Assembly (NCBI GenBank): GCA_036703275.1
Contig: DATNPK010000082.1
Location: 86,130-150,129 of the forward strand
Length of the DNA: 64,000 bases
Direction of reading: 5' to 3'
Origin: Coleofasciculaceae cyanobacterium
GTDB taxonomy: Bacteria > Cyanobacteriota > Cyanobacteriia > Cyanobacteriales > Xenococcaceae
Both the position numbers and the translations under genes were made by a program. Positions 23,743-47,111 of the stretch are shown here, piece by piece. A model generated the notes under the pieces. The model did no database searches. It was not told the DNA's origin and saw nothing but the letters and a program-made list of their open reading frames with translations. Position 1 is the first letter of the stretch. The number at the start of each line of letters is the position of its first letter.

Positions 23743-23773
23743 AACCCAGATTGATTTATTCGAGAGAAAAATT

Positions 23774-24181
23774 ATGTATCGCAATTTTAATTCTGCTAAT
23801 TCCCAGCTCGACAAGGTAATGAGCGACGATCAGTTCAACCAAATAGTTGAAGCAATTATATCGGGAAAATATTCTTGGGCGTGTCTTTTGATTCTGCGCT
23901 TTTCAGGATACAACCCGTTGCACTATATTCCTTATCGAACCTACAACCGACTGATGAAACTTAATCGAGAGTCAGAGCCTCAGTTAGTGAGGGATAATAC
24001 TGTAGCTCATCGCAGCCAGTCTCAATCGCCTCAAACGTCTCAGAAATCTGCGACCAAGCTCCGAGATCTATGTTGTTTGGAAGAAATCGATCGCCAGTCT
24101 CAGAAGGTAAAAGGTGGAGAAAGAGTATTCTCACTCTACGCAATACCCAATTTGATTTGGCAGAAATTTAGCAATAACTAA
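23774..24181 (+). CDS. HetP-family protein
   Basis: From ATG 23774 the ORF reads MYRNFNSANSQLDKVMSDDQFNQIVEAIISGKYSWACLLILRFSGYNPLHYIPYRTYNRLMKLN. This matches the conserved HetP N-terminal domain (KYSWAC..LRF.GYNP.HYIPYRTYNRL) as I recall it. Confidence 0.7.
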   Translation: MYRNFNSANSQLDKVMSDDQFNQIVEAIISGKYSWACLLILRFSGYNPLHYIPYRTYNRLMKLNRESEPQLVRDNTVAHRSQSQSPQTSQKSATKLRDLCCLEEIDRQSQKVKGGERVFSLYAIPNLIWQKFSNN

Positions 24182-24385
24182 ATAAAAGATCGGGCTTTAG
24201 TGATTTGAGCTATGACTTTTCTTAGCTCTTAGCTTTTTTAATTCAACATCGACTATTGCTTTGTTGCCTCTGAAAAAGTTTAAACAGAAACAGAGAATTA
24301 CCTTTACTCAGACTTTTGAGCTAGAGGTTCAACAACTAACTTTTGCTGGTTTTTTACGGAGTAAGAGCAAGTGGATATTACAGCA

Positions 24386-26327: not shown

Positions 26328-26359
26328 CAAGATATCCATTGATTCTAATTATATTTTAA

Positions 26360-26683
26360 TTATGATGAGGAGCGATCGCGATCGCTATGTATCATGTAGT
26401 TCAATTCACTATCTAGCCACTGTTTGAAAATGCGATCGATAATCTCTTGACGTATTTTGGCAGTTAGTTGAGCGGGAATATACTCCTCAATCTTAAATAA
26501 ATGATACCCCACCTCTGTCTTAATTGGTCTAATGATTTCGCCGATGGCAACTGGAGTTTTAAATATAGCAGCAGCTATGTCTGGGGGATAATCCCAGCGA
26601 TGTACTTTTCCTTCATAGCCACAAACATATCGACTGCCGATTCTGGCTTCTACTCCTAACTGTTCTAATTGTTGGCGACGCAA
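26360..26683 (-). pseudogene. PpiC/parvulin-type peptidyl-prolyl isomerase, C-terminal fragment
   Basis: Only about 105 codons remain. They carry the end of a rotamase domain (PIKTEVGYHLFKIEEY) and no credible N-terminus. SurA-like PPIases accompany such exporter clusters, from memory. Confidence 0.5.
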
Positions 26684-27192: not shown

Positions 27193-28717
27193 CTAAGCAA
27201 AGTCACTAAAACTATAGATGCGATCGCTATTGCCAAAATAGAATGCTTCGACGTTTTCAACTATCAACATCGAATCCCCATCTTTAATGGTGAGAGTCTG
27301 GTTAGCAGATGAGCCGAGGGTAATTTGGTAGTCGTTTATATTACCCCATAGCTTGAGAACATCATAATCTTTACCGCCATTAATCGAAACTGTTGCTTCA
27401 AAACCGCCGATCTCAAAGGTATCATTACCGCGATCGCCGAAAATAGCAGCATTTTTAATCAAGCCTGACTGATCTTCTTGAAAATAAACTTCTTGAGTGG
27501 ATCGATTAAAATCGACTATCGCTGCTTGGAAATAGTCATCACCTTGACCTAATTCAATTTGACTGTCTTCAACGCCAATATTGCTACCATAGCCAATGAC
27601 TCGATCATTACCCTTTCCTGTCTCGATGTTACCGCCTTTAATGCCGATTGCGCCCTAGCCAATAACTTGATCGTCTCCCTGGGATGTTTTAATTACTCCC
27701 GAATTATCAATGCCGATGGCGATCACTGTTGAGGTATCGGCTATCGAATTAGTATCGGTTTGAGCATCTGAATTATCGGCAATACCAACTGCATCGGCTT
27801 TAGCATCTGCTGTAGCAGCTACATTATTAACTGCGATCCCGATAATAATGTCATTACCTCTGCCAGTAGCGATCGCGCCTGTATTAACAATTGCCACAGT
27901 ATAACTTTCTGTAATAGCCAAGGATTCGGCTTTAGCTGTTGCTATAGCTATATCGTTAGCAATAGATTCTGCTTCAGCGATCGCCTGAGAATTACTGGAA
28001 CTTCTAGTATTAGCTAACCCAAAAATTATATCGTCGCCTTGTCCTGTAAAAATTTCACCAGAGTTAAAAATTCCGAATGTACTTGTTTTACTATTAGCTA
28101 TAGTTGCGGATGTACTTCTAGAAATAGCTGTCTCAATTTGATTGACAACTTCAGAATCACACTCTGTAGATAAAGCGGCAATATTGCTAGCAAAGGCAGT
28201 AGCTTCAGCCTGACTATCTGCCGAGGTACTAGCTAGACCTATGATCGTATCATTACCATTACCAGTAGCGATCGCACCTAAATTATCAATTCCAATAGCC
28301 AGTGCATCGGCTATAGCAATAGACTCACTATTGACAATGGCAGAAGAGTTATTACCCAAAATTACCGCGATTTTAGAGGTAGCCAGAGACTCACTGAAAT
28401 GCTGAGGCATTAGCTACACCGATCAGGCTGTCATTGTCTCTACCAGTGCTAATTTTATTTATATTTTCTAAACCGATAGCTACAGCATTAGTTTGGCTGT
28501 TGGCAGCAGCAGAAAATATACTTTCAGAAACATATTTAGCTTGAGATTGTACCTCAGAATTATCGACTATGTTTTCAGGATAAAATAAGTCGTTTTTGCT
28601 ACATTTCCAGCTAGGTCTTTCAATCCCAATAACCTAGGATAAAGAAATTAATATACCATCAATAGCTACCCGATTTACTAGTGATATATTTGGAAAAATG
28701 TTATTTATTTTACTCAC
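27193..28717 (-). pseudogene. repeat-rich RTX-like secreted protein (GxGNDxIxG repeats), disrupted
   Basis: The frame from GTG 28717 has an in-frame TAG at 28634-28636. It has a frameshift near 28390-28410. It has a second in-frame TAG at 27655-27657. The motifs TGNGNDTIIG, TGQGDDIIFG, TGRGNDIIIG, TSQGDDQVIG, TGKGNDRVIG and GDRGNDTFEIGG recur every 40-50 residues. Confidence 0.6.
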
Positions 28718-29400
28718 AATAACTTTCTACATATTTAATCATTTTGCTCAATTAATTATGCAGGCTATTAGAGGTTTTATTTATCAAGATCTGATGAGTA
28801 ATTAGCTAGATAAATAAACAATACGTTAAGTTTTCATGTCCTTTTAATCAAGCAAATAATATTTTTTGATTAAAAACAACCAATTACTAAAATGCTGTGT
28901 TGACAATACCGTTTATTTAGAATTTAGAAAATGTGCTTTGGATGATCCTGTAATCGGGTCACTTAGGAATGTTAAATATTGCCCTCAGTACAATTGTCAA
29001 TTATGCGATCGCTGGCTACATTACAACTTTTTATTGAAAGCAGTCTCGCCATAGTCTCAATTAGGTTTCTGCTTTAAATTTAAAAGTTGGCTGGCTAATG
29101 ATAGTGATGAGAATGAAACTATGCCTGATGAGCTAAGAGATTGCCAGCCAATTAATTTTTGATTGGCACTTTCAATTAAACTAGCAATAATATTTAGCTG
29201 CTTTTTTTTGCCAGTATTTTTAGCTTTTTGTTTCACTACCCTGCGATCTCTTCTTTTTACAAGACTACAAAATATGCCATTAAAAAACTGACTCAAATGT
29301 AAGAAGAAATTACCACCTACATTTTTTAAAGTGGTCGTCAAGTATGTTCCTGATGATAGAAACTAGAGGCGGTATCTGCCCATCGCTTAAACGCTTTACT

Positions 29401-29471
29401 AATAAGGAATTGTCGTTCCAGAGATTAACTCTAGCAAAAAAGGCGAAAAGTATCTGAGAAAGAGGCGATGC
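29401..29471. repeat. 71-bp near-duplicate of the 3' coding end of the FAD monooxygenase gene
   Basis: 29401-29471 and 29642-29712 are near-identical, with a handful of mismatches over 71 nt. The copy encodes HRLFLRYFSPFLLELISGTTIPY* versus HRLFPKYFSPSLLELISGTTIPYST in the intact gene. Confidence 0.6.
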
Positions 29472-29558
29472 GGCTCTACTGCGAATGTTATGTAAGCAAA
29501 CCCACTATCGTATTTGCTGCACGGGAAGGGAGGTTATCGGTGGTCTAACTCAAGTTAG

Positions 29559-30887
29559 TTACTTAAAAGCTCTCTCTAAGAACTTTCGGTTAGCTTTTTT
29601 TACTCTTGAAATCCATCGCCGATGAGTAGACAAAATTGTTGAATAAGGAATTGTCGTTCCAGAGATTAACTCTAGCAAGGAAGGCGAAAAGTATTTGGGA
29701 AAGAGTCGATGCAATATTTGCGCTAACTGCTGCCTGATAATAAACTCGATTATCAGTTTTTTGTTAAATGACGGGAAAACATTGTCGCTTAGTTCTACTA
29801 CAGCATGAGCATCGGACTTTCGCCGCTCAGTAAATTTTGCGCTCGCCATAGCTAGATTATCTGAATATTCATTCAATAGTTCATCAACGATCGCGGCATC
29901 TTCCATAGCTGAATTACAACCCTGTCCAAGAGATGGAGACATCGCATGAGCAGCATCTCCAATGAGTAAAACGCTGTCCTCGTAATGATAGTGACTACAA
30001 ATAATGGTTAAAATACTGGAGACTGGTCGATTCAGAAACTCAATTGCTTCTGATTCCGATATAATTTGACCGATTTCTGGAAAATGTTGCCGAAAGAATT
30101 GTAAAACTTCTGCTGCCGTGGCAAGGGTAACTACAGAATTGCGATCGCGAGGAAAGGTAATTACACCGCTCATCGAGCCATCTAACTGATGCACCATCAA
30201 TACACCAGTACCGTTTTCTAACCTCCAAGCGTGAACATAGCCTGATTTCAATTCATCTGTAGCAGTTTTTGTGGAAGTTTCCACGGAATTAGGCAAGAAA
30301 ATGGATTTGTAGTCAGTGGGAATGTATTTTTGCTCCAACTCAAATAATTCTGTCGAAAGAAATTTTTCTCTAACTATTGATTTCGCTCCATCTGCGCCGA
30401 TTAATAAGTCATAATTAATCGTGATTTCTGCTGTCTGATTCTTTTGAAAGGTTGCTGTTTTGCTGGCAAAATCGAGCTTAGTACATTGATGGTTAAAATA
30501 GAGATTGAGACGACTTTGATCGTAGGTTTTAGTTGACTTTTGTAATAAAGCGATCGTTAATTGAGTGCGGTCAAGAATAAAAATGGGATTTCGCCTGGGA
30601 GTAAATCTTGTCTTACCATTAGTTTGATGAAAAACTGAACCAGTGCTTTCGACGCTCATTCCTGTGACTATTTCTACCAAACCTTCAATGTTACTCAAAG
30701 CATTGATTCCTCTTGGATTTAGCGAGATCAAAAAGGTTCTTGAGCTTGAAAAGACAATGGTTTGGGGGTCGCTACGACGTTCGTAAATATCGACTTTATA
30801 GCGATCGCCACGACGTAATAAATAGTGTGCTAAAAGTACTCCACTGGGCCCTGCACCGATAATTGCGACTGTCTCAACCATAATCAA
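29559..30887 (-). CDS. FAD-dependent aromatic-ring monooxygenase (kynurenine 3-monooxygenase/UbiH-like)
   Basis: 442-aa ORF. It has the dinucleotide fold IIGAGPSGVLLAHYLLRRG. It has the motifs GADGAKSIVR and LIGDAAHAMSPSLGQGCNSAMEDA. Its start lies 23 nt after the HlyD stop. Confidence 0.85.
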   Translation of the reverse strand: MIMVETVAIIGAGPSGVLLAHYLLRRGDRYKVDIYERRSDPQTIVFSSSRTFLISLNPRGINALSNIEGLVEIVTGMSVESTGSVFHQTNGKTRFTPRRNPIFILDRTQLTIALLQKSTKTYDQSRLNLYFNHQCTKLDFASKTATFQKNQTAEITINYDLLIGADGAKSIVREKFLSTELFELEQKYIPTDYKSIFLPNSVETSTKTATDELKSGYVHAWRLENGTGVLMVHQLDGSMSGVITFPRDRNSVVTLATAAEVLQFFRQHFPEIGQIISESEAIEFLNRPVSSILTIICSHYHYEDSVLLIGDAAHAMSPSLGQGCNSAMEDAAIVDELLNEYSDNLAMASAKFTERRKSDAHAVVELSDNVFPSFNKKLIIEFIIRQQLAQILHRLFPKYFSPSLLELISGTTIPYSTILSTHRRWISRVKKANRKFLERAFK

Positions 30888-30910
30888 TTTCCATCTGAAA
30901 AATAGTTTAA

Positions 30911-32293
30911 TTACAAGTTGGTGGTGAGTCTGGCTTTTCTAAGCAAAAATTTCATTACCGTTTCTTCTTTAGTAATAATGTCGGTTTGCCCTTCCATACC
31001 CAATTGAATGGCACACTGGTTATTTTCCTTGCCTACAGAACTATTATTTGGCTCAATTGCCACTTCATAAAAAGCTGCACCCGTTTGTTGACTAGGAGCA
31101 TTAGCGGTAGAGGATGTATTAGTATTATCTCGTTGAGGAAAAGCTGCATCGGGAGCAATAGCTGTAAGTGTTCCTTTAAGAGTGCCGTAATCGGAATAAG
31201 GACAAGCAGATACACGCATTTGAGCTACTTGACCTTTTTTAAGTTTACCTATTTCTTTAGCAGGAACTGAAGCTTTGATGGTTAGCTTAGTATCACCAGG
31301 AGCAATTTGAGCGATTTCTTCGCCAGGGCGTACAGTTTGACCAGGATTGCGGAGATTGAGCTTAGAGATAATGCCGTCTGTGGTTGCAGTGATTATAGTT
31401 TGCTGAAGATCGGTATTTACTTGCTGTAGTTCGCGGGCATCTTTGTCTAATTGCTGGTTAATTTCAATTTGTTGTTGAATCAAAGCTTCTTTTTCTTTAT
31501 TTAAAGTAGCAAGACTAGCTTTACCTGTAGCTTCAGCTTCGGTAATTCGAGACGTGGCGATCGCAATTTCCGCATTACTGGGATTTAAAGCAGTTTGTGC
31601 GCCTGCTAATTTAGCTTTGGCTGCTGCGGTTGCCTCCTGTTGCTGCTGTAAGGCTAATTGTACTTCCTCCAATTGATCGCGTGAAATTGCCCCTTCTTTG
31701 GCTGCACTGCGATAACGATTCAGTTTGGTTTGCGCTGCATTTAAAGCCGCTTTGGTTGCTTTTAAGTTTGATTCGGTTTCTTGAACTCCTGCTTTGGTAG
31801 TAATTTGTTTATCTCGATATTCCCGTTCGATGCGATGAAGTTCTGCGATCGCACTAGCGACATTTCCATCAATACGGTCAGTTTCGGCGCTTATTTGACT
31901 ATTAAGAGCATTAATTTGCGCATTAATTTGCACAAGCTGTAATTGTGACTGTTGAACTGTGTTTTGTAATTGACTTTTTTGGGTTTGCAAACGAGAGTCA
32001 CCGATCGTGGCCATGACATCTCCTTGTTTAACAACCTGATTGCTTTTAACGGCAATACTCATTACTCGTCCTTCTGTAGCAGCCTGAACTAGGCGTAATT
32101 CACCTTCAGGACGAATCAGGGCTTGTACTTTGACAGTTTCTTTATATTTAGTCACTGAAGCAATAGGAATCGCCAAGGCAACTACGGCAACGATAAACAG
32201 TCCGCCAAACATAGTCCAACGACTAATCGGGGGCAGAAATTCGTCTTCTTGAACTGTGGGGAGGAATTTGGGATTGGAGTTGTTAGTAAGCAT
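30911..32293 (-). CDS. HlyD-family secretion adaptor (membrane fusion protein)
   Basis: 460-aa ORF. It has an N-terminal TM helix (WTMFGGLFIVAVVALAIPIASV), a long Q/A-rich coiled coil, lipoyl/barrel-sandwich segments and a conserved tail (TDIITKEETVMKFLLRK). Confidence 0.85.
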   Translation of the reverse strand: MLTNNSNPKFLPTVQEDEFLPPISRWTMFGGLFIVAVVALAIPIASVTKYKETVKVQALIRPEGELRLVQAATEGRVMSIAVKSNQVVKQGDVMATIGDSRLQTQKSQLQNTVQQSQLQLVQINAQINALNSQISAETDRIDGNVASAIAELHRIEREYRDKQITTKAGVQETESNLKATKAALNAAQTKLNRYRSAAKEGAISRDQLEEVQLALQQQQEATAAAKAKLAGAQTALNPSNAEIAIATSRITEAEATGKASLATLNKEKEALIQQQIEINQQLDKDARELQQVNTDLQQTIITATTDGIISKLNLRNPGQTVRPGEEIAQIAPGDTKLTIKASVPAKEIGKLKKGQVAQMRVSACPYSDYGTLKGTLTAIAPDAAFPQRDNTNTSSTANAPSQQTGAAFYEVAIEPNNSSVGKENNQCAIQLGMEGQTDIITKEETVMKFLLRKARLTTNL

Positions 32294-32305
32294 GGCATAA
32301 ACAAA

Positions 32306-32367
32306 TAGGTAATGGGTAATAGGTAATAGAGAACAAATTATCTGTGTTTATCTGTGTTCATCTGTGG
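32306..32367. repeat. two short tandem arrays in the exporter-HlyD intergenic spacer
   Basis: (A/G)GGTAAT x3 lies at 32306-32326. A 10-mer (TATCTGTGTT, TATCTGTGTT, CATCTGTGGA) lies at 32338-32367. Confidence 0.6.
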
Positions 32368-32415
32368 ATAATTCTTTAAAATAATCAATTGCTCTCAAAA
32401 TGTGGCTGTAGCAAT

Positions 32416-34626
32416 TTAGCGGTGAGAGAGAGAATGTCCGTTAAGTTCGAATAATGGTCTTTTAGTAGGGATAAAATCATCGAGAAAATCTAAATGATCT
32501 CCAGCAATAGAGCGCAATTGCTCGGGAGTACCCTGAACTTTTAATTGTCCTTTTTCTAGCATCACAACCCAATCGGCACGGACAATTACTCTGGGACGAT
32601 GACTAATTAAAATAGTGGTTTTGCCCCGTCGATGAGCAAATAATTGTTCTAAAACTCTGGCTTCACTGACTGGATCTAATGCGCCAGTAGATTCATCTAA
32701 AATTAAGACTGGGGGATCGGTGACTATCGCTCTGGCGATCGCTAATCGTTGTTTTTGACCACCAGAAAGGTTTGCCCCAAATTCTCCTAATACGGTTTGA
32801 TATTTATCGGGTAGTTCGCTAATAAATTCATCAGCACCAGCGATTTGGCAGGCTTTAACAATTTGCTCGAAGGTGAGATCGGGATAACTGAAGCGAAAGT
32901 TATCAATAATTGAACGACTCCAAAAGTGGGCTTCTTGGGGTAAAAGTACTACCTGTTGGCGCAAACATTCTATAGAAAGATCTTGTTGATTATAAATTCC
33001 GTAGCGAACATTGCCAGATTGTACTGAATATAAACCAGCAATTAGTTTAGCGAGGGTACTTTTACCGCAACCAGATTGACCAATTAAAGCAACTACTTTA
33101 CCGTTAGGAATAGTTAAGGAAAAGTCCTGTAGTAAATCAACTCTTCCCGCATGATGAAAGTTTAAATTATTACAAATAATATCGGTATCGCCTGGAAGTT
33201 CTGCCCAAGGTTTTTTAAAGTCATTTTCATCTTCGGGAGTGGCTTCAATTACTTCTGTTAAACGTTGAATGACTACTTGTGCCGTAATAAATTCATCTGC
33301 TAGTCCAATGGCACTACCTAAAAAGCCGAGAAAATTACCGCTCATGCCGTTATATGCCAGTAATTGACCGATACTGAGATCGCCCTGAATTACCAGATAG
33401 CTGCCCAACCACAATAAACCGACGGAAGTGAAGCTAGACAAAACGCTGGTAATACTACCGCTGTAAAGACTCAGTTTCATCGTATTCCAGCCGAGATTAG
33501 CCAAGCGCCCATAATTACCTTGATATTCTTGCCAAGCTTGGGGTGTAGCCTGAGTGGTTTTGAGTACCTGTACTCCGCGAAACGTTTCGACCAGAAAGCC
33601 TTGATTTTCTGTACCCAAAATGATTTGATTGCGAGTTTTTTGCCGTAGGGCAGGTAGAAAAACTAAGTTGACCAGAGTAACAATAATAAAAGCAACAATC
33701 GAAGCGACGCTGAGTTGCCAACTGTAAAATAGCATTGCTGCCAAGGAAACCACGGCAATAAAAAATTGACTGGGCAAACCAAGCACAATTTGAGATACCA
33801 AACGATTAATCGCACCGACATCCGCAATGCGACTAACTACTTCTCCGCTGCGTCTGCCTTCAAAATAAGAAAGGGGTAAATGTAATAATTTGCGTCCGTA
33901 TTCTAAAATTAGTCCCAACTGCAACTTTTGCCCAAAATGACCAATTAGGTGAGACTGAATTAGCCCAACCACAGTTCTAAACACGTTCATCACGATAACT
34001 GCGATCGCAACTGTAGCCAATAATTGAGTATCTCCTCTGACTAAAACATCATCTGTCAGTAATTGCATCATGATCGGCGAAGCTAGAGACAGCAAACCTA
34101 CCGCAAAATTAATCGCGATCGCCTGGGCTAAAATCCAACGATAGGGTAATACTCTTTTGAGATAGCGTCCAAAGCCTCCTAAACTTCCCTTTTGGTCTTC
34201 TTCTTGTTCGTAAAAGCGACTGTCATCGGGAGTAAGTAACAACATTACTCCATTGCCCCACCCAACGGTTAACTCACGACGAGTCAGATAGCGAATACCA
34301 ACGCCAGGGTCAGCAACAATGTACTTTTTGCCTTTTTTACCGTATAAAACCACCCAATGGTAGCCTTTCCAGTGAATAATAGCTGGTAAAGGAATTTCAG
34401 ATATGCGATCGATAATCTCTGTAGTTGCTTTAACTTGACGCACATTAAAGCCGAAAGCCTCTGCACCTCGGTTCAAACCTAACAAGGTAGTGCCTCTAGC
34501 ACCCGTACCTACAGCTTCTCTGACTCGACTAATCGCAAAGGTGCGTCCGTAATGTTTGGCAACGGTAGCAACGCAAGCAGCCCCGCAGTCTTCTTCGCTG
34601 TGTTGCAATACGATTGGGTGTTTCAT
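32416..34626 (-). CDS. peptidase-containing ABC transporter (C39 cysteine peptidase + 6-TM + NBD)
   Basis: 736-aa ORF. The C39 domain has the catalytic Cys (QHSEEDCGAACVATVAKHYG) and His (IIHWKGYHWVVLYG). It has a TM domain, Walker A GQSGCGKST, signature LSGGQKQRLAIARA and Walker B ILDEST. Confidence 0.9.
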   Translation of the reverse strand: MKHPIVLQHSEEDCGAACVATVAKHYGRTFAISRVREAVGTGARGTTLLGLNRGAEAFGFNVRQVKATTEIIDRISEIPLPAIIHWKGYHWVVLYGKKGKKYIVADPGVGIRYLTRRELTVGWGNGVMLLLTPDDSRFYEQEEDQKGSLGGFGRYLKRVLPYRWILAQAIAINFAVGLLSLASPIMMQLLTDDVLVRGDTQLLATVAIAVIVMNVFRTVVGLIQSHLIGHFGQKLQLGLILEYGRKLLHLPLSYFEGRRSGEVVSRIADVGAINRLVSQIVLGLPSQFFIAVVSLAAMLFYSWQLSVASIVAFIIVTLVNLVFLPALRQKTRNQIILGTENQGFLVETFRGVQVLKTTQATPQAWQEYQGNYGRLANLGWNTMKLSLYSGSITSVLSSFTSVGLLWLGSYLVIQGDLSIGQLLAYNGMSGNFLGFLGSAIGLADEFITAQVVIQRLTEVIEATPEDENDFKKPWAELPGDTDIICNNLNFHHAGRVDLLQDFSLTIPNGKVVALIGQSGCGKSTLAKLIAGLYSVQSGNVRYGIYNQQDLSIECLRQQVVLLPQEAHFWSRSIIDNFRFSYPDLTFEQIVKACQIAGADEFISELPDKYQTVLGEFGANLSGGQKQRLAIARAIVTDPPVLILDESTGALDPVSEARVLEQLFAHRRGKTTILISHRPRVIVRADWVVMLEKGQLKVQGTPEQLRSIAGDHLDFLDDFIPTKRPLFELNGHSLSHR

Positions 34627-34751
34627 GTTTTTGCAGTAAGTAATTTAAGATCTGGTTTTTTGAACTATCTGTATAGTAGAAATCAAATCCCTAAAAAACG
34701 TCTGAAAAACGTCTCGAACTGCACCTAGACTTAATGGATAAATTCCTGCTG

Positions 34752-34793
34752 ACTTTAGTAGATGAACTAAGTTAATTTCTCTATGACTAAAGT
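34752..34793. promoter_or_regulatory. inverted repeat ACTTTAGT-N26-ACTAAAGT upstream of the exporter operon (candidate operator)
   Basis: ACTTTAGT is at 34752-34759 and ACTAAAGT at 34786-34793, 126-167 nt upstream of the exporter start. The same pair recurs at 36804-36844 and 38213-38252. Confidence 0.45.
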
Positions 34794-34873
34794 TAGAATT
34801 GAAAAAACCAAGGTGCGTCAATCTTCAATAACACACCCAATGCTATTTCCTTAAGTTCAGTCAAATAAACATT

Positions 34874-35059
34874 TTAATCTAGGATTTCTGCAAAATAATT
34901 TGCTTTGACATATGCAGAACCTTCAGTAAAGCCTCGACGATAATAAAGCAAAGCAGTAAACAGTAAATGTTTGATTGGGTCGAGATTTTTATGTATAGCG
35001 TTTTGCCATCCTAAACTGTAAAGCTCATAGCTCAAATAGCCAACGCGCTCAATCTGCAT
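34874..35059 (-). CDS. hypothetical small protein
   Basis: 61-aa ORF between the precursor stub and the exporter. I recognise no motif, so coding status is uncertain. Confidence 0.2.
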   Translation of the reverse strand: MQIERVGYLSYELYSLGWQNAIHKNLDPIKHLLFTALLYYRRGFTEGSAYVKANYFAEILD

Positions 35060-35188
35060 TCTATACCTCCATTTTTTCTTAAATGATCTTGAGTATTAAA
35101 TTGATTTATTAGGTTACGAGCGATCGCATTTAATAACGCGCGATCGCGCTTACTTCTACGCTTGTTTTGTTGAACTATGTTATGGATT

Positions 35189-35251
35189 TTAAAGAGGAAA
35201 TTTCCATTCCAAATTATAGAGAGAATTGGACTGATTGTTGATCTTAGTCAT
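35189..35251 (-). pseudogene. truncated stub of a GG-leader precursor gene
   Basis: It reads MTKINNQSNSLYNLEWKFPL*. The DNA closely matches the 5' end of the 37637-37990 gene through ...CAGTCCAATTCTCTCTATAA and then diverges. It keeps the family-specific upstream region. Confidence 0.55.
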
Positions 35252-35470
35252 TGTTTTTATCCTAATAATTTGGGTTTACTTTAGTTATCTACCAGGCAAG
35301 AGTTGATAAAACAATTAGTAGTTAGTTAATTAACTTTTGCTTTGGTTTTTAACTATCTTGATCATAAAAAATAGAACTACTAAAAACATCTGAAATAAGT
35401 CCCTAACCTTAATCAACTAAATATATATACGGCTATAGCACTTTAGTTATAGTTAAATCGCCACCAGATT
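35252..35470 (-). repeat. conserved precursor 5' region, copy A
   Basis: It shares blocks with 36617-36860 and 37991-38260. The shared blocks are AGTTATCTACCAnGCAA, AACTTTTGCTTTGGTTTTTAACTA (35332-35355), AACATCTGAAA, ATCAACTAAAT and ACTTTAGT. Confidence 0.6.
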
Positions 35471-35487
35471 AGCTGCAAACCATCCAC

Positions 35488-35515
35488 AAAAAAAAGACTC
35501 TTTGAGAGAAGAGCC
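35488..35515 (-). terminator. rho-independent terminator after the DUF3455-like gene
   Basis: The minus-strand RNA is GGCUCUU-CUCUCA-AAGAGUC followed by U8. It lies about 80 nt past the stop at 35597. Confidence 0.55.
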
Positions 35516-35596
35516 TTGCTGAAATATTCTAGTCACAGAATTAGAGTGTGGTTGCGGAATAAGTTGGCAAAATTCAGTGTATTAAATCTAATAATT

Positions 35597-36148
35597 TCAT
35601 TGAGTAGTGGGACGGTAGAAGTAATAATCGGCGGTGTAAGGCACGGCAATTTCCGTATTTTGACGATCGCGATCGCAACTTTCTTTAGGCATTACACCAC
35701 CAGTTGTATGCAAACGCTGAATCCATTTTACGCTTGCCAATCTGCCATTACCTTGAGCAGATTCTATTTGCAGCAAAAACCAAGGAATTGAGTCATTTGA
35801 GACAATCTCCTCAGCTTTTATACCTGCGGTGATTTTACTACCATCGTTTGCTTCCCAGGTTGGGCCAGCGTAATGCGTTCCCAAAACTTCGCCCTGAGAA
35901 TTAAATAGCTTGGCATCAGGAGCTTTTAAAGTCCACTCAAACTGCGATCCTGGGTTTGTATCCTGATTGCAAGTATAAATTTGCGCTCCTTGAGCCTCAG
36001 CTTTAAGTATGAGTTGTTGCCCAGTTGGCACTTGCAAATTTTTGGTTACTTGAGGATTGTCGTTAAGGTTACCACGAGCGACACTGCATAGCCCTAGGCT
36101 AATTACAGAGGCAATGACGCTAATATTTATCCATGAAAATTTCTGCAT
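35597..36148 (-). CDS. secreted DUF3455-like protein
   Basis: 183-aa ORF. It has a signal peptide (MQKFSWINISVIASVISLGLCSVARG). Its pattern, QIYTC ... W.L.AP.A.LF ... G.HYAGPTWEANDGS ... IPWFLL ... VKWIQRLHTTGG..P ... VPYTADYYFY, matches my recollection of DUF3455. Confidence 0.6.
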   Translation of the reverse strand: MQKFSWINISVIASVISLGLCSVARGNLNDNPQVTKNLQVPTGQQLILKAEAQGAQIYTCNQDTNPGSQFEWTLKAPDAKLFNSQGEVLGTHYAGPTWEANDGSKITAGIKAEEIVSNDSIPWFLLQIESAQGNGRLASVKWIQRLHTTGGVMPKESCDRDRQNTEIAVPYTADYYFYRPTTQ

Positions 36149-36262
36149 AAAAATTCTTGTGTTAATTGTTATTAAACAGTTCTGGGGAAAGATTTCGTAT
36201 GGGCGATCGCAGTTATTAGAGTTATTGCTAAAGTTTTAAGCTGATCTTTTTACAACTTTGGA

Positions 36263-36616
36263 CTATGGCAGGGCTTTAAAAGAGGATATTTCCTTGCCAA
36301 AATCACCAGTATTAACAGTTGTACCTGGCCCTACGTCAATGTATTTGCCCCCAAAATTTATATCCTCATAGAATCTCCATGTTTTATCATTAAAAATAGC
36401 AATAGATCCAGTAGCATCATTAAAACCAAATTCCCTTAAATCTTCTATTTTTTTATTACTGGCAAATCAAAATCCTTGTTTGTTTGATTCGGAGTATAAA
36501 GTCACATCTGTAACTGTTACTGCTCCACCAGAAATAGCAGCAGCAGATTCAGGAGAAATATCTTAAACACATTCAACGTTATGGAAATATTTTGATTGAT
36601 TATTGTTTTTAGACAT
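36263..36616 (-). pseudogene. GG-leader beta/gamma-crystallin-like precursor with two in-frame stops
   Basis: The 118-codon frame reads MSKNNNQSKYFHNVECV*DISPESAAAISGGAVTVTDVTLYSESNKQGF*FASNKKIEDLREFGFNDATGSIAIFNDKTWRFYEDINFGGKYIDVGPGTTVNTGDFGKEISSFKALP*. The stops are TAA at 36563-36565 and TGA at 36467-36469. Confidence 0.7.
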
Positions 36617-36860
36617 AAGTTTTTTCCTAATGATTTCAGTTGATTTTCTTGGTTTACCAAATAAAAGTCTTTGAAATAATTAGTAGTTAGGTAATCAACT
36701 TTTACTTTGGTCTTTAGCCATGTTTATATTAAAATTTTGAGTCAAATAAAGCATCTAACAAAGGTCTTTAATCTCTATCAACTAAATGAATATACGCTCT
36801 AATACTTTAGTTGTTTAGCCAAGTAGATTTTCTATCACTAAAGTCATAGTCATAATATGA
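36617..36860 (-). repeat. conserved precursor 5' region, copy B
   Basis: It contains AACTTTTACTTTGGTCTTTAGCCA (36697-36720), ATCAACTAAATGAATATAC and the ACTTTAGT/ACTAAAGT pair. Confidence 0.55.
36804..36844. promoter_or_regulatory. inverted repeat ACTTTAGT-N25-ACTAAAGT (candidate operator)
   Basis: ACTTTAGT is at 36804-36811 and ACTAAAGT at 36837-36844. The right half-site context TTCTAT(C/G)ACTAAAGT is shared with the 34752-34793 copy. Confidence 0.4.
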
Positions 36861-36876
36861 AATTAACAGTAATAAG

Positions 36877-36905
36877 AAAAAAAAGACCCTTAAACGAAAG
36901 AGTCT
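36877..36905 (-). terminator. rho-independent terminator after the second precursor gene
   Basis: The minus-strand RNA is AGACUCUU-UCGUUU-AAGGGUCU (8-bp stem with one G-U) followed by U8. It lies about 83 nt past the stop at 36988. Confidence 0.55.
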
Positions 36906-36987
36906 TGCTTGAATATTGTGTTGTGTAGATAAAATTATGGATGGCGCGATCGTCATCGGTATTTATTAAGGTTGTATGGTTTCCATA

Positions 36988-37422
36988 TCATAGACGGATC
37001 AACTTAACGGAAGTAATCCTATCATCATTAGCCCCAAGATTATAACTTCCTGGTGCTAAAAAACCTGTATCACCACCTCCGTCATCAGTAAAGAACTGCC
37101 ATGTGCCCCTGTTAACTATGATTGATGAGACGGTATCGTTAAAAGTAGTTTCCCCACCATCAGGAAGCACACCAATGTTAACAAACTCTCCAGCAGCCCC
37201 GTTAGCTGTTAGCACGTCACCTGATAGACCCAATGCCTGTCCTTGCCCGTTAGGGTCTTTGTGGAAAACTATATCTGCACCTATAGCACTGGAATCAAAA
37301 GTTGGCCCTGCAGCACCAATTGAAACTGCACCACCAGAATAAGAAGCAGCAGTTTCAGAGGAAATATCTTGAACAAATTCGATGTTATGGAGGGAATTGG
37401 ATTGAGTGTTAATTTTAGACAT
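36988..37422 (-). CDS. GG-leader precursor 2: 31-aa double-glycine leader + 113-aa Gly/Asp-rich beta/gamma-crystallin-like core
   Basis: The leader is MSKINTQSNSLHNIEFVQDISSETAASYSGG followed by AVSIG.... The core carries Greek-key-like signatures (FNDTVSSIIV; GTWQFFTDDGGGDTGFLAPGSYNL...DRITSVKLI). Confidence 0.7.
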   Translation of the reverse strand: MSKINTQSNSLHNIEFVQDISSETAASYSGGAVSIGAAGPTFDSSAIGADIVFHKDPNGQGQALGLSGDVLTANGAAGEFVNIGVLPDGGETTFNDTVSSIIVNRGTWQFFTDDGGGDTGFLAPGSYNLGANDDRITSVKLIRL

Positions 37423-37636
37423 TCTTTTTCTCCTAAGTGTTTGAGTTGATTTGAGTTATCTACTGAGCAATAGTTATTGAGATAATTAGTAATCAGCTCA
37501 AGACTATTTGCTCTAAACAATACAGAACAGTTAAATATGTAGAAGCGTATTCTATACGTCCTAATAAAATTGAGTGGTTTCACATGAGGTGCGATCGCTT
37601 TCGGAGATGGTGTAGCAAATCGCGTTATTTTTTAGA

Positions 37637-37990
37637 CTAATCTATAGCCTGGAAAGAAGAGATTGATAATCCAAACTCGCCAACATCCATAGCCGTATTT
37701 GGTCCTACATCTATATAATTTCCCTGAAAATTGGCATCTTCGTAGAATCTCCAAGTCTTACCATTATTAATCGAAACAAATTGAGTAGCGTCGTCAAAAC
37801 CATATTCGCTTAAATCTTCTATTGCTTTATTGCTATTAAAGCTAAATCCTTGATTGCATGGTTCAGAAGTTAAACTCACATCTGTAACTGTAACTGCACC
37901 ACCAGAATAAGAAGCAGCAGTTTCAGAGGAAATATCTCGAACAAATTCGATGTTATAGAGAGAATTGGACTGATTGTTAATCTTAGACAT
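37637..37990 (-). CDS. GG-leader precursor 1: 31-aa double-glycine leader + 86-aa single beta/gamma-crystallin-like domain
   Basis: The leader is MSKINNQSNSLYNIEFVRDISSETAASYSGG followed by AVTVTD.... The core contains KTWRFYEDANFQGNYIDVGPNTAMDVGEFGLSISSFQAI. This fits the (Y/F/W)xxxx(Y/F)xG ... S Greek-key signature. Confidence 0.75.
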   Translation of the reverse strand: MSKINNQSNSLYNIEFVRDISSETAASYSGGAVTVTDVSLTSEPCNQGFSFNSNKAIEDLSEYGFDDATQFVSINNGKTWRFYEDANFQGNYIDVGPNTAMDVGEFGLSISSFQAID

Positions 37991-38260
37991 TATTTTTCTC
38001 CTAAGTGTTTGAGTTGATTTGAGTTATCTACCAAGCAATAATTATTGAGATAATTGGTAATTAGTCAATGAACTTTTGCTTTGGTTTTTAACTATTTTTA
38101 TTTTATGAATTAGAGCAAAACAAAACATCTGAAAAAAGTCTTGTGATAAACATCAGCTAAAGAAATAGATTGATTTTGACGTTTGTCCAGGTATTCGGTA
38201 AAACTTTCTCAAACTTTAGTCTTGGTTAGCAATTATTTCTTCGCACTAAAGTGATAATTT
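37991..38260 (-). repeat. conserved precursor 5' region, copy D (shared divergent promoter region with the kinase gene)
   Basis: It contains GAGTTATCTACCAAGCAA, AACTTTTGCTTTGGTTTTTAACTA (38071-38094), AACATCTGAAAAAAGTC and the ACTTTAGT/ACTAAAGT pair. Confidence 0.6.
38213..38252. promoter_or_regulatory. inverted repeat ACTTTAGT-N24-ACTAAAGT between precursor 1 and the histidine kinase (candidate operator)
   Basis: ACTTTAGT is at 38213-38220 and ACTAAAGT at 38245-38252. It lies 51-90 nt upstream of the kinase start and about 225 nt upstream of precursor 1. Confidence 0.45.
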
Positions 38261-38302
38261 TTTATGACCTTATGAGTATTTAGGGTTTAATAAAGGAACA
38301 AA

Positions 38303-39529
38303 TTGTTGTCTCCAGCTAAAGTTATGAACTCTTGGTGGAAAATTCAACCCAATCCTTTTCGCTTTTTATTGCTCGCCGAATGGATAATGCTAGGCAGTTG
38401 CGGTTCTCTAGCTATCATCGAAGCTTTTCAAGACCAAACTATACCGGTTGAACATATTTTAATTCTAGTTTTGCTCGGTTCTATGGGTTTAGCTTTGCCT
38501 AATGGTTCTCTTGCTTTTCGGGTGATTTATACGACTATCGAAATCGGCTTAATTGCCATTGGTACATCATTAGGCTATCTCCATATCTTGCCTACTTTAT
38601 ATTTAATTGTTGTTATCCGTAGTTGTTTTTTGTTTGAATCTGTTGGTCGTTGGGTAGTTGCTGGTTTAGTCTTGATCCTTTTTTTGCTTGATGAGCTACG
38701 TTATGCCCAGCGAGCTTTACCAGAATTGCCTGAAGAACAGTTTGAATTTATGATGCATTTGATGGCACAGACTTTGGTTTTTGGTTTAGGAATCTTTTTT
38801 GTCTTGCAGCTGGTCAATAAATTACTAGTTGAACGTCAAATAAAGCAACAACTTGCTGTAGCCCACCAACAATTACAGGACTATTCCCAACAAATTGAAG
38901 ATCTTGCTGCCGTACAAGAACGCAATCGCATCGCTCGCGATATTCATGACTCCCTGGGACACGCCTTGACATCCCTTAATATTCAACTGCAAACAGCGGT
39001 TAAACTCTGGCAAAAAAATCCTGCTCAAGCCCATCCTTTTCTGGCACAAGCTCAAAAATTAGGAGCGATCGCTATGAAAGAAGTACGTCAATCAGTTGGC
39101 ACATTGCGAGCAGATCAGGCAGATGAACAGCCTTTAAAATCAAAAATTTGGGCTTTAATCGACAATCTTCGTTCTGGTACTGGTCTAACTATTCGTAGCA
39201 AAATTGCTCATTGTCCTCAACTATCACCCCAAATAGAAAATACTATTTATCGTATTGTCCAGGAAGCTTTGACGAATATAGCTAAGTATGCACAAGCTAC
39301 AGAAGTAGAAATTAAGCTTAAGGTAATTGAAACAAAAGTATATCTAAGTGTTCAAGATAACGGTAAAGGATTTGAATTAAATCAAAACAAGACTGGATAT
39401 GGACTACAGGGTATGCAAGAAAGAATTAATGCTGTTGAAGGTTGCTTGCAAATTCAAACTTCGCCAGGGGCTGGCTGTCGAATTTTAGTAGAAATTCCTT
39501 TATCGAGAGTTATTACCTTGTCGCCTTAA
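38303..39529 (+). CDS. membrane sensor histidine kinase (HisKA_3/NarL-type) with about six TM helices
   Basis: 408-aa ORF. About 175 hydrophobic N-terminal residues show no obvious extracytoplasmic domain. It has an H-box ERNRIARDIHDSLGHALTSLNIQLQ and HATPase_c boxes (QEALTNIAKYA; DNGKGF; GYGLQGMQER). Confidence 0.85.
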   Translation: MLSPAKVMNSWWKIQPNPFRFLLLAEWIMLGSCGSLAIIEAFQDQTIPVEHILILVLLGSMGLALPNGSLAFRVIYTTIEIGLIAIGTSLGYLHILPTLYLIVVIRSCFLFESVGRWVVAGLVLILFLLDELRYAQRALPELPEEQFEFMMHLMAQTLVFGLGIFFVLQLVNKLLVERQIKQQLAVAHQQLQDYSQQIEDLAAVQERNRIARDIHDSLGHALTSLNIQLQTAVKLWQKNPAQAHPFLAQAQKLGAIAMKEVRQSVGTLRADQADEQPLKSKIWALIDNLRSGTGLTIRSKIAHCPQLSPQIENTIYRIVQEALTNIAKYAQATEVEIKLKVIETKVYLSVQDNGKGFELNQNKTGYGLQGMQERINAVEGCLQIQTSPGAGCRILVEIPLSRVITLSP

Positions 39530-39655
39530 GCTAATTTAAATTCAACTTACTTGCTAAACAAAGCGATCGCCTTTTTTGCCTTTTTTTATTTGTCCCAAAT
39601 AGCTAATTAACCTATTATGTAAGTAAGAAGAATTACCCAGATGTAGTAAAAATAG

Positions 39656-40303
39656 ATGATTCGCCTTTTGCTAGTAGACGATCAAAGTCTTGTTTGTCAG
39701 GGATTAGCTGCAATGTTATCACTGGAAGAAGATTTAGAGATTCTTGGTACGGCTAATAACGGTCAAGCAGCTATTGATTTGGTGGCTAAGAAACAGCCAG
39801 ATGTGGTTTTAATGGATGTGCGAATGCCGGTGATGGATGGCAGAGAAGCCACGAGAATTATTGTTCAACAATTTCCCCAAGTCAACGTAATAGTTTTGAG
39901 TACTTTTGATGACGATGAATATATTGCTGATGCTATCAAAGCGGGAGCAAAAGGTTATTTACTCAAAGATATGCCCTGCGAAGAACTAGCCCAGGCAATT
40001 CGACTTGTTCATAGTGGCTACACTCAATTAGGTCCTGGATTGATGGAAAAATTGCTTCAAGGAGTCTCCCAACCTAATGCTGAGCAATCCAAGTCCCTGG
40101 CAGCAGAATTAAGTCAATTGACTAAAAGAGAACAAGAAGTGTTGTCCTTAATAGGTAAAGGTCATACCAATCGTGAAATTGGTCAAAAACTTTACGTTAC
40201 AGAAGGAACTGTTAAAACCCACGTTACTCACATTCTCAACCGTCTTAATCTAAGAAACCGATCGCAGATCGCCATTTATGCCAATTCTCTGGGGCGTTGC
40301 TGA
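39656..40303 (+). CDS. response regulator, REC + LuxR/NarL-type HTH
   Basis: 215-aa ORF. It reads MIRLLLVDDQ ... DVVLMDVRMPVMDG ... LLKD, then LTKREQEVLSLIGKGHTNREIGQKLYVTEGTVKTHVTHIL. Confidence 0.9.
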   Translation: MIRLLLVDDQSLVCQGLAAMLSLEEDLEILGTANNGQAAIDLVAKKQPDVVLMDVRMPVMDGREATRIIVQQFPQVNVIVLSTFDDDEYIADAIKAGAKGYLLKDMPCEELAQAIRLVHSGYTQLGPGLMEKLLQGVSQPNAEQSKSLAAELSQLTKREQEVLSLIGKGHTNREIGQKLYVTEGTVKTHVTHILNRLNLRNRSQIAIYANSLGRC

Positions 40304-40373
40304 ACAAATTCAGGAAAACCCGCGTCTAAAAAACTCGATCTAGATCGCGATCGAGACTTTAACTTTGGTAGTA

Positions 40374-40686
40374 TTATTGTGATATTACGGCAGCTAATTC
40401 TTGACGGCTGACACCAGTAATAAATAAAGCGCGAATGGTTAGCTCTAAAGATACTGATGGATCGTTCTTTTCGATTTTGGCTACTCGCGATTGAGAAGAG
40501 TCCATTAATTCTGCCAAAGTAGCCTGAGATAGCTTTTGATCTTTCCGTTTTTGTTTCAAAAACAGAGCTAGTTTAACTTTTAATTCTACAAGCTCGGATT
40601 CGGCAGGAGTTAAATCAAGAAAATCACTAGCATCCTCGACAGCCCAACCAGCAGCCTCTAATTCTCTGACGTTTTTCTGAATCCAT
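40374..40686 (-). pseudogene. HigA-like XRE-family antitoxin, frameshifted near the 5' end
   Basis: ATG 40686 gives MDSEKRQRI..., which then runs out of frame. A second frame encodes LEAAGWAVEDASDFLDLTPAESELVELKVKLALFLKQKRKDQKLSQATLAELMDSSQSRVAKIEKNDPSVSLELTIRAL. The total length of 313 nt is not a multiple of 3. Confidence 0.5.
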
Positions 40687-40703
40687 AACTTTTTTCTCTT
40701 AGA

Positions 40704-40892
40704 TTAAATCTCGTCATATCGCTTCAGTCTTTTCTAACATTGCTTAATAACCGAGTGTGGGGTTTTGTTGGTTTTTTTGGCAAACACATCCACAATCACG
40801 ATGGCATCAGAATCTATACGATAGATAATTCGCCAAGTTTTATCTTCATCATTGATTCGTAACTTATGACACCTCGCTCCAATAGTAGGCAT
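40704..40892 (-). pseudogene. HigB/Gp49-like toxin remnant with in-frame TAG
   Basis: It reads MPTIGARCHKLRINDEDKTWRIIYRIDSDAIVIVDVFAKKTNKTPHSVIKQC*KRLKRYDEI*. It appears N-terminally truncated relative to the family and is interrupted at codon 53. Confidence 0.5.
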
Positions 40893-40988
40893 TGGGCGCA
40901 ATTAGGGTAAAGATAGGGATTGGTCAAGTTGTAGCAGTCGCAGAAAATGTAATTCCTTTTCCCGTTCGTTCTTTTGTTGACCCAGATC

Positions 40989-41243
40989 ATGAGTGAGGAA
41001 TTGAGTTTTAAGAATGCTATCGAAGCAAAACGCGCGATCGCTATTAAACGAGTACTAGCCCGTCAGCTGGCGGAGGAGATGAAACGACAAAACCTGACTA
41101 AAACAGAGATGGCGAAGCAGATGCAGACCTCCAGGGCGCAATTAGATAGACTACTCGATCCAGAAAAGACAGGAGTGAGCATTGAAACTATCACCAGAGC
41201 AGCTTCGGTAGTGGGTCGTCAACTGCGAATCGAATTAGTGTAA
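40989..41243 (+). CDS. XRE-family helix-turn-helix protein (antitoxin-like)
   Basis: It reads MSEELSFKNAIEAKRAIAIKRVLARQLAEEMKRQNLTKTEMAKQMQTSRAQLDRLLDPEKTGVSIETITRAASVVGRQLRIELV. No intact toxin gene is adjacent. Confidence 0.55.
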   Translation: MSEELSFKNAIEAKRAIAIKRVLARQLAEEMKRQNLTKTEMAKQMQTSRAQLDRLLDPEKTGVSIETITRAASVVGRQLRIELV

Positions 41244-41343
41244 GCTAATTTGGATTTCTCTAATTAATACATCAAAACGTCCAATTTTGATGCACACTTT
41301 TAAATACGTCCGTATTAATGACTAGTCAGAACAAAGTTACTAA

Positions 41344-41751
41344 TGCCAATTGCGATTAGGCGGAGCCAATCGCCTGATGCTTTCATTAATATATGGCTGT
41401 GGGTTGAGAGTTAGTGAGGCGATCGGTTTAACTTAGGATGATTTCAAAAAACACGGTGACGGAGGTAAAGCGACGGTGTTTGGTAAGGGAAGTAAAACTA
41501 GGATTGTTTTGATACCAAATAAGTTATGGCAACAGGTAAAAGAGTTTGAGAAGCGCGAGGAAGCGTTGCCCGTGCATGATTTGCGACGCGAAGCGAGTCC
41601 TTTAGGGCGAAGCTTATCCTAAAGGACTCGCTTCGCGTCGCGGGGGTTCGCCCCGTTGAGCTTACCGAGTAAGAAATACCATCGAGTTAATCAGTACGTC
41701 TTTATTAGTCGCAATCATAATCAGATGGATGTAGTGTCATCGGATGATTAA
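41344..41751 (+). pseudogene. tyrosine recombinase fragment, nonsense codon plus repeat insertion
   Basis: It reads ...ANRLMLSLIYGCGLRVSEAIGLT*DDFKKHGDGGKATVFGKGSKTRIVLIP..., where TAG sits where Trp is expected. The palindromic repeat at 41583-41662 interrupts the frame. The frame resumes with ...YVFISRNHNQ. No start codon or catalytic C-terminus is present. Confidence 0.55.
41583..41662. repeat. GC-rich palindromic dispersed repeat (family copy 3)
   Basis: It has perfect 24-nt arms, GCGACGCGAAGCGAGTCCTTTAGG (41583-41606) and CCTAAAGGACTCGCTTCGCGTCGC (41618-41641), around an 11-nt loop. GGGGGTTCGCCCCGTTGAG follows. This parallels the reverse complement of copy 1. Confidence 0.7.
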
Positions 41752-46940: not shown

Positions 46941-47086
46941 TCGCTGCGCTTCAATTCAAAGTTCAAAATGTAGAATTCAAAATTAATTTCCTTTCTTACT
47001 TTATTCTGAAATTGGGAAATTAAAATTGGCGTTGGTGAATCCAGGTATGATTTTTGAGATTTGAAAGTCTTAATTGAATTTAAAAA

Positions 47087-47111
47087 GCTAATAGCTAATA
47101 GCTAACAGCTA
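47087..47111. repeat. heptanucleotide tandem repeat (GCTAATA/GCTAACA), reverse complement of the 27124 array
   Basis: The sequence is GCTAATAGCTAATAGCTAACAGCTA. It sits at the junction between the DUF3780-like gene and the inserted TA block. Confidence 0.55.

Follow-up and report, generated by a model that had tools for sequence, protein, structure and literature searches.

A probable co-regulated type I secretion locus for leader-tagged β/γ-crystallin proteins in a Coleofasciculaceae cyanobacterium

Overview

Positions 29,559 to 40,303 of a 64-kb stretch of DNA from a Coleofasciculaceae cyanobacterium (contig DATNPK010000082.1; the full 64-kb stretch is called the window below) hold two genes, P1 and P2, whose products combine a double-glycine (GG) leader with a β/γ-crystallin core, along with genes for a C39-peptidase ATP-binding cassette (ABC) exporter, an HlyD-type adaptor, a sensor kinase and a response regulator. 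We consider this likely to be a type I secretion locus under common regulation, with small leader-tagged proteins as its cargo. The export machinery is of a known kind and the cargo family is uncharacterised; new here are the fold of the cargo, with canonical Ca2+ motifs in P2, and a regulatory module common to cargo and exporter genes. The domains, catalytic residues, synteny and common promoter module described below were established by sequence analysis. All the open reading frames (ORFs) claimed by a first-pass annotation of this DNA are present at the coordinates and on the strands listed in Table 1, and the window proteins are identical residue for residue to NCBI entries HEY9769943 to HEY9769951, which belong to a 155,338-bp contig of a metagenome-assembled genome. 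Absent from that annotation were a small gene (ORF61), the repeated promoter module, three terminator-like sites and a second, decayed exporter cluster at 22453-26683. Matching loci in other genomes carry L-numbers; L001 is in a 6.1-Mb genome, L002 in a Pleurocapsa metagenome-assembled genome and L015 in a sister genome.

P1 and P2 have β/γ-crystallin cores

The cores of P1 and P2 were identified as genuine β/γ-crystallin domains, in agreement with the first-pass annotation, as follows: The P1 core (predicted 9.4 kDa, isoelectric point 4.05) matches Pfam Crystall with 28.3 bits, over the gathering cut-off of 25, and P2 alone (core predicted 11.4 kDa, isoelectric point 4.07) reaches 23.6 bits, slightly under it. 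A profile of 44 family members searched against PDB matched archaeal M-crystallin (E 4e-12), and one of 16 P2-type sequences matched the Ciona β/γ-crystallin (E 1.7e-11), both over the whole domain. The AlphaFold model of P1 has predicted local distance difference test (pLDDT) values of 80-90 in the core and a disordered leader (residues 1-33), and Foldseek aligns it with Ciona crystallin 2bv2 and M-crystallin 3hz2 at template modelling scores of 0.86 and 0.82, respectively; by this model the P1 core is a double Greek-key fold. NCBIfam has no family for P1 and only a chance-level match for P2.

The Ca2+ motif of β/γ-crystallins is N/D-N/D-x-x-S/T-S in two copies (PMC3551895). P2 holds two canonical copies, FNDTVSS and NDDRITS, and in P2-type proteins these motifs (FNDxxSS and N/D-D-x-I-T/S-S) occupy invariant or near-invariant columns. 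The P1 counterparts, FDDATQF and EFGLSISS, are degenerate and do not form the canonical pair, so that, judged by these motifs, the P1 type has lost the Ca2+ sites that the P2 type keeps. The cargo is thus like the known microbial crystallins (M-crystallin, Ciona crystallin, Protein S and vibrillin) in its double Greek key, its Y/FxxxxY/FxG sequence and its Ca2+ motifs, but the P1 type, unlike the Ca2+-binding ones, is without the last of these.

The ratio of nonsynonymous to synonymous substitution rates (dN/dS) against orthologues is 0.15-0.18 for the P1 gene and 0.12-0.14 for its core, which indicates purifying selection. In the same comparison dS is lower in the leader-coding part (window 37898-37990; 0.16-0.58) than in the core (0.33-1.04), a difference that points to gene conversion between paralogues or to a constraint at the nucleotide level that reaches in from the promoter region. 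The precursors form a small family of 43 clusters at 90% identity; about 12 of the top 150 representatives, among 1.84 billion proteins, also cover the leader. Microbial β/γ-crystallins are widespread, with 3504 matches at E ≤ 0.001 among the 1.84 billion representative proteins.

Could the cores be protease inhibitors of the SMPI/MEROPS I36 kind, a family against which the first-pass annotation had proposed that they be checked? The fold is common to both and P2 gives a weak Pfam match to Inhibitor_I36 (E 0.069), but its 13.5 bits lie below the cut-off of 21.1, P1 has no match, and the best matches in sequence and structure are Ca2+-binding crystallins and not SMPI. We regard this explanation as highly unlikely.

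The GG leader and its remnants

The leader is 31 residues long, with G30, G31 and E23 invariant in 44 homologues and conserved hydrophobic residues at positions -4, -12 and -15; in the window, positions -12, -9, -7 and -4 are occupied by I, E, A and Y, respectively. This conservation and the disorder of the leader in the model bear out the first-pass designation of the cargo as GG-leader precursors. Some other crystallin cargos of the same transporter clade carry a more canonical leader, for example ...LFTELTLEEGAVIEGG (pattern ...LFTELTxEExAxIEGG). In L002 the window's type of leader stands before an unrelated, hydrophobic, non-crystallin core of 53 residues in an intact 84-aa gene (2668-2922), as would fit an export tag.

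The precursor pseudogene and 21-codon leader stub of the first-pass annotation could both be read out by translation. The pseudogene has two stop substitutions and keeps its frame; no terminator-like site separates it from the DUF3455 gene downstream, and its promoter probably still drives that gene. Relative to the intact 84-aa gene of L002, about 155 nt are missing from the window between conserved flanks (blastn), and by this alignment the stub is a deletion remnant of that gene.

The exporter and its adaptor

The transporter has strong Pfam matches to Peptidase_C39 (E 1.9e-34), ABC_membrane (8.6e-37) and ABC_tran (2.9e-31), and aligns full length (residues 2-711) to the peptidase-containing ABC transporter (PCAT) PCAT1 (4RY2; 3e-105). 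Its predicted catalytic residues Gln8, Cys14, His90 and Asp106 align with PCAT1 Gln15, Cys21, His99 and Asp115, so the C39 domain is predicted to be of the active type and not degenerate. The adaptor has one N-terminal transmembrane segment (residues 29-47). The first-pass assignment of a C39 ABC exporter with HlyD therefore holds, with an intact catalytic set.

Cargo and exporter genes lie together in other genomes

A metagenome scan with the transporter gave 79 loci at 62-94% identity, and a genome scan with a 12-sequence cargo alignment gave six. HlyD follows the transporter in 47 of the 79. Upstream DNA of at least 2.5 kb is available for 51 of these metagenomic loci, and 14 of the 51 have same-strand ORFs with a crystallin core; cargo, exporter and HlyD genes also stand together in L001, L002 and L021. 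The synteny that the first-pass annotation proposed to test is thus found for these three components, but not for the monooxygenase gene, and for the kinase and regulator pair only in the closest clade (below). Even genomes with about 95% identity over the exporter region differ in their set of cargo genes.

The same transporter clade also adjoins at least two other families of GG-leader cargos of 85-115 residues (Table 1), the cores of which begin ...GG|YEVFEVKNKTGYN... in one and like ...GG|AFVLIEKIQAIKANADL... in a second; the representatives in L043, L026, L055 and L031 have no Pfam match. These further leader-tagged families suggest that the clade exports small proteins generally. At L001 the three crystallin cargo genes are preceded by a gene for a 760-aa receiver-HlyD-like fusion (6028-8310), and a GDSL lipase gene (10498-11583) lies between them and the transporter.

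A promoter module common to cargo and exporter genes

In the window as in other genomes, a module of about 130 nt with the palindrome CTAAAGT-N15/16-ATTTAG stands before cargo genes and before the exporter operon. Before leader genes the palindrome lies about 190 nt upstream, and after it come GACnTnTTTCAGAyGTTTT, a TAnnAT hexamer and AGATAGTTAAAAACCA. A distance of 185-196 nt from box to start codon is kept in at least five genomes and with three types of cargo. The exporter gene has the same module with a shorter untranslated leader, both in the window and in L002. The module core occurs four times in the window, before P1 (with a degenerate box), the pseudogene, the stub and the exporter, and nowhere else in the 64 kb; the P1/P2 copy lies within the 312-nt divergent intergenic region common to the kinase gene. 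Transcripts would be expected to start near AGATAGTT in all four modules. With the terminator-like sites of Table 1, the likely transcription units are P1-P2, pseudogene-DUF3455, stub-ORF61 and exporter-HlyD-monooxygenase.

A structured RNA in the conserved 5' region was considered and rejected: Rfam (E up to 1) found nothing relevant over 28500-41500, and the RNAalifold consensus of 12 upstream regions, at -2.3 kcal/mol, had no compensatory pairs. We therefore read this region as promoter plus untranslated leader.

The kinase and response regulator

Hydropathy analysis agrees with the first-pass description of a kinase with about six transmembrane helices and no obvious periplasmic domain: there are about six hydrophobic segments in residues 21-176, joined by short loops with none of sizeable length outside. 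Its true start is likely to be Met8, at 38324. In L002 the kinase orthologue adjoining the exporter is 62% identical, and linked regulator orthologues are found in L002 (72%) and L030 (64%). The genomes with a linked pair are approximately those with the palindromic box, of which the regulator is a candidate binder. No box was found on the strand of the kinase gene. In L015 the kinase gene is cut to its C-terminal half (1353-2134) and abuts a fragment of a P1-like gene. A hypervariable sensor was also looked for in the kinase, and its identity to L002, 56-68% in the membrane part versus 54-82% elsewhere, shows no sign of one.

The first-pass annotation saw in this layout a mirror of class II bacteriocin and pheromone loci. 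Class II bacteriocin regulation uses an HPK10-type kinase, a LytTR-type regulator and a small inducer peptide, and in Bacillus ComQXPA the pheromone ComX is exported differently. The likeness to these systems, a membrane-embedded kinase and a regulator beside leader-peptide genes and an exporter, is one of analogy only and fails at the level of families: the pair here is HisKA_3 with NarL/LuxR, and no small inducer peptide was identified.

Nevertheless, might an exported product, either a crystallin core or the short hydrophobic cargo lost here, be sensed by the six-helix kinase and so activate all of the modules? A kinase sensor made of membrane helices only, with no external domain, suits sensing at or in the membrane; the pair adjoins the exporter in the window, L002, L015, L021 and L030; a single promoter module serves cargo genes and exporter; and Bacillus ComP/ComA is a HisKA_3/NarL-type pheromone pair. 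Such autoinduction nonetheless appears rather improbable, as the families differ from the class II type, the membrane part of the kinase is no more variable than the rest (above), the short-cargo candidate has been deleted here from an otherwise intact locus, most related exporter loci have no such pair, and the kinase-gene strand has no box.

The monooxygenase is a neighbour

The monooxygenase gene, which the first-pass annotation placed in the exporter operon, starts 23 nt past HlyD as that annotation stated if a TTG start is used, but 29 nt past it with the ATG start of the NCBI record. No terminator-like site lies between the two, and in the window the gene may be co-transcribed with the exporter. 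The enzyme might hydroxylate the cargo before export, an idea implied by the first-pass proposal to look for +16 Da products, and its adjacency is kept in the near-identical loci L015-L017. These are, however, the only relatives in which it follows HlyD: L001, L002 and L021 lack it, and so does every one of the 79 metagenomic exporter loci, for 34 of which the DNA extends 1.5 kb or more past HlyD. The family has over 800 homologues (E<1e-20) across Nostocales, Coleofasciculus and others, in taxa where searches found no leader-crystallin family, and in Coleofasciculus and Nodularia they sit in unrelated contexts. Its closest models are small-molecule aromatic hydroxylases; the best NCBIfam match is VioC-like (2e-55), far under that model's cut-off. 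Synteny and distribution thus rule out the monooxygenase as a part of the system or as the tailoring enzyme of a cluster resembling those for ribosomally synthesised and post-translationally modified peptides, cargo tailoring is very improbable, and the gene is a lineage-specific neighbour and not a functional part. Both the transporter gene and the monooxygenase gene of L015 are broken into two ORFs, through real decay or assembly frameshifts.

Comparison with known systems

Cyanobacterial GG precursors of 28-164 aa were catalogued in 2011 (Wang et al., PMC3140520), and the group III clusters of that survey, with on average 3.9 precursors of 29-129 aa, resemble the present locus in having a short-type C39 transporter, HlyD and several GG precursors, and in that rearrangements, truncations and frameshifts are common. 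As is required of group III, there is no second ABC transporter, LanM or SurA at the locus. The survey differs in that it assigned no core fold and reported very little core conservation, whereas a defined crystallin family and a common promoter module are found here, and it makes no mention of a two-component system or monooxygenase.

In Synechococcus elongatus PCC 7942 the small GG-motif proteins EbfG1-4, encoded in tandem, are secreted by way of PteB in a manner that needs the C39 catalytic Cys (PMC4997328); the likeness to the window lies in tandem small GG-motif proteins with a C39 transporter. EbfG function is non-antibiotic, in the biofilm matrix, and its regulation is by a secreted inhibitor (PMC4997328), in contrast to the adjoining kinase and regulator pair here. 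PCAT1 of Clostridium thermocellum and its 66-residue cargo CtA (PMC6959990; 4RY2) share the transporter over its full length and provide a model of leader-only recognition, but the host is Gram-positive and without HlyD or TolC, and the PCAT1 leader has L(-12)/E(-8)/L(-7) versus I(-12)/E(-9)/A(-7) here. MAM of Faecalibacterium is a folded 113-residue, 12.1 kDa GG-leader cargo with proposed export by an adjoining C39 transporter and assembly at the cell surface (PMC12184118), evidence for which is largely in silico plus proteomics; its fold and phylum are unrelated to those of the cargo here. With CtA, MAM, EbfG1-4/PteB and the 28-164 aa catalogue as precedents, the novelty that the first-pass annotation attached to cargo size was overstated. 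A literature search found no paper linking a crystallin-fold cargo to a GG leader or a dedicated C39 exporter.

A model for export and the role of the cores

We infer the following course of cleavage, export, Ca2+ binding and regulator binding: P1 and P2 would be made with the disordered 31-residue GG leader, which the C39 domain would recognise and cut after Gly31 to give acidic 86- and 113-residue cores starting AV (predicted mature N-termini AVTVTDV... and AVSIGAAG...). The transporter, HlyD and a TolC-type channel encoded elsewhere would then carry the cores out of the cell, where the P2-type core, with both Ca2+ sites, would probably fold or be stabilised on extracellular Ca2+, the P1 type having lost the sites. 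The cargo genes, DUF3455, ORF61 and the exporter operon would all be expressed from behind the palindrome-box module, with the kinase and NarL-type regulator as likely controllers, and the monooxygenase, as a lineage-specific neighbour, may ride on the exporter transcript.

Several observations weigh against this reading of the locus. The leader deviates, in its I-12, E-9 and A-7, from the Gram-positive GG-leader consensus L(-12)xxxE(-8)L(-7)xxxxG(-2)G(-1) (PMC6959990). No outer-membrane factor came up in those ORFs of the window that were scanned, a terminator-like site separates ORF61 from the exporter, and the cargo genes of L003-L008 are far from any exporter. Outside the closest clade the kinase and regulator pair is not linked to the exporter, the pseudogene and stub are signs of decay in the window copy, and a structural role for the cores is drawn from analogy only.

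What might the cores do outside the cell? One explanation is that they are bacteriocin-like toxins, that ORF61 is an immunity factor and that the turnover of cargo genes reflects an arms race. The yeast killer toxin WmKT and Streptomyces SKLP are crystallin-fold toxins. The layout equals that of the cyanobacterial "bacteriocin" clusters of PMC3140520, cargo sets differ between genomes whose exporters share about 95% identity, the window has a pseudogene and a stub, and in L002 the hydrophobic, peptide-like cargo gene is just upstream of the ORF61 homologue. The P1 core is, however, under purifying and not diversifying selection, the cargo genes of L003-L008 have no adjoining candidate immunity gene, ORF61 has no membrane segment and follows the exporter rather than particular cargo types, and acidic cores with Ca2+ motifs are unlike cationic or hydrophobic class II peptides. 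Antagonism seems to us unlikely.

An extracellular role that is structural or Ca2+-dependent, at the cell surface or in the matrix, is most likely by analogy and is favoured over antagonism because selection is purifying, no immunity genes are paired with the cargo genes, the cores are acidic and have Ca2+ motifs, and EbfG, MAM and Protein S offer parallels. We tentatively raise the further possibility that GG-leader crystallins are a distinct class of type I cargo, export-competent in the low-Ca2+ cytosol and then folding outside in an RTX-like, Ca2+-dependent manner to form a surface or matrix layer in pleurocapsalean cyanobacteria, with a dedicated intramembrane-sensing kinase switching the entire regulon through the box.

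Accessory genes and surroundings

ORF61 has six homologue clusters (63-92% identity), no match in Pfam or NCBIfam, and a helical AlphaFold model of low confidence (mean pLDDT 65); it lies directly upstream of the exporter in four genomes (window, L002, L021 and L030). The DUF3455 protein has one N-terminal hydrophobic (Sec-type) segment, residues 6-24, and no NCBIfam family, and its gene recurs within the cargo region of L021 (64% identity) and L015 (34%).

The decayed second GG export cluster is of the "group I" type (Table 1); at the matching place L015 has an intact 1044-aa long-type transporter gene and a rotamase gene. Two minus-strand ORFs at 27193-27462 and 27655-28410, with no Pfam match at E ≤ 0.05 and E ≤ 0.001, respectively, are rich in GxGNDxIxG-like repeats (for example TGNGNDTIIG and TGQGDDIIFG) reminiscent of the RTX-type Ca2+-binding repeats of classical type I secretion substrates. 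Toxin-antitoxin-like fragments (40374-41243; an HTH_3 ORF, a Gp49/ParE-like ORF and an HTH_37 ORF) directly follow the response regulator gene. The window further has an apparent defence or mobile island at 43231-57022 and 59044-61953, with DUF499 (1093 aa) and DUF7680, a DNA methylase (892 aa), an SNF2-type helicase (1063 aa) and then a TrwC relaxase/helicase. To the left, the window consists of ordinary chromosomal DNA that includes genes for prolyl-tRNA synthetase, ResB, a ClpC-like protein and EPSP synthase.

Table 1. Features of the locus, of the decayed second cluster and of other GG-leader cargo families (window positions unless an L-number is given)
Feature	Coordinates	Strand	Description
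Cargo gene P1	37637..37990	-	117 aa; 31-residue GG leader and 86-residue single β/γ-crystallin domain
Cargo gene P2	36988..37422	-	144 aa; same leader and 113-residue core, crystallin domain with loop insertion
Pseudogene of P1-like cargo	36263..36616	-	One frame, 117 codons; in-frame stops at codons 18 and 50
DUF3455 protein	35597..36148	-	Pfam 1e-28
Leader stub	35189..35251	-	21 codons; translation MTKINNQSNSLYNLEWKFPL, then stop
ORF61	34874..35059	-	61 aa, soluble, probably helical; just 5' of exporter
PCAT, short type	32416..34626	-	736 aa; Pfam Peptidase_C39, ABC_membrane and ABC_tran
HlyD-type periplasmic adaptor	30911..32293	-	Pfam HlyD_3; NCBIfam type_I_hlyD 1.6e-49
Kynurenine-monooxygenase/VioC-like flavin adenine dinucleotide (FAD) monooxygenase	29559..30887	-	Pfam FAD_binding_3
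Sensor kinase	38303..39529	+	Pfam HisKA_3 and HATPase_c
NarL/LuxR-type response regulator	39656..40303	+	Pfam/NCBIfam REC and GerE
Promoter module, P1/P2	37991..38196	-	Degenerate box at about 38157-38185
Promoter module, pseudogene/DUF3455	36617..36816	-	Exact box 36782-36810
Promoter module and conserved leader region, stub/ORF61	35252..35452	-	Exact box 35417-35446
Promoter module, exporter operon	34627..34765	-	Palindrome-like box 34730-34758, then GACGTTTTTCAGACGTTTT, TACTAT, AGATAGTTCAAAAAACCA
Intrinsic-terminator-like hairpin and T-run after P2	36883..36906	-	
Terminator-like site after DUF3455 gene	35494-35517	-	
Terminator-like site after ORF61	34811-34838	-	
HlyD-like ORF	22453-23646		Second, decayed cluster
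cNMP-binding and C39 ORF	ends at 25771		Second, decayed cluster; without membrane domain
ABC ATPase fragments	25680-25904, 26082-26327		Second, decayed cluster
Rotamase/SurA fragment	26360-26683	-	Second, decayed cluster
Other GG-leader cargo families	L043 8688-9035, L057 9460-9804, L036 3078-3464, L051 9100-9486; L026 9425-9841, L055 9462-9863, L063 9213-9605		

Implications

As the monooxygenase illustrates, lying 23 nt beyond an operon does not make a gene part of the system encoded there. The cyanobacterial C39 ABC exporters of this clade would carry proteins of about 10 kDa from several unrelated families and not just short peptides. We know of no function for most microbial β/γ-crystallins. 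The present family links some of them to a dedicated means of export and to a regulon that can be recognised, and the exporter, regulator and box may provide a genetic handle on what a secreted crystallin domain does.

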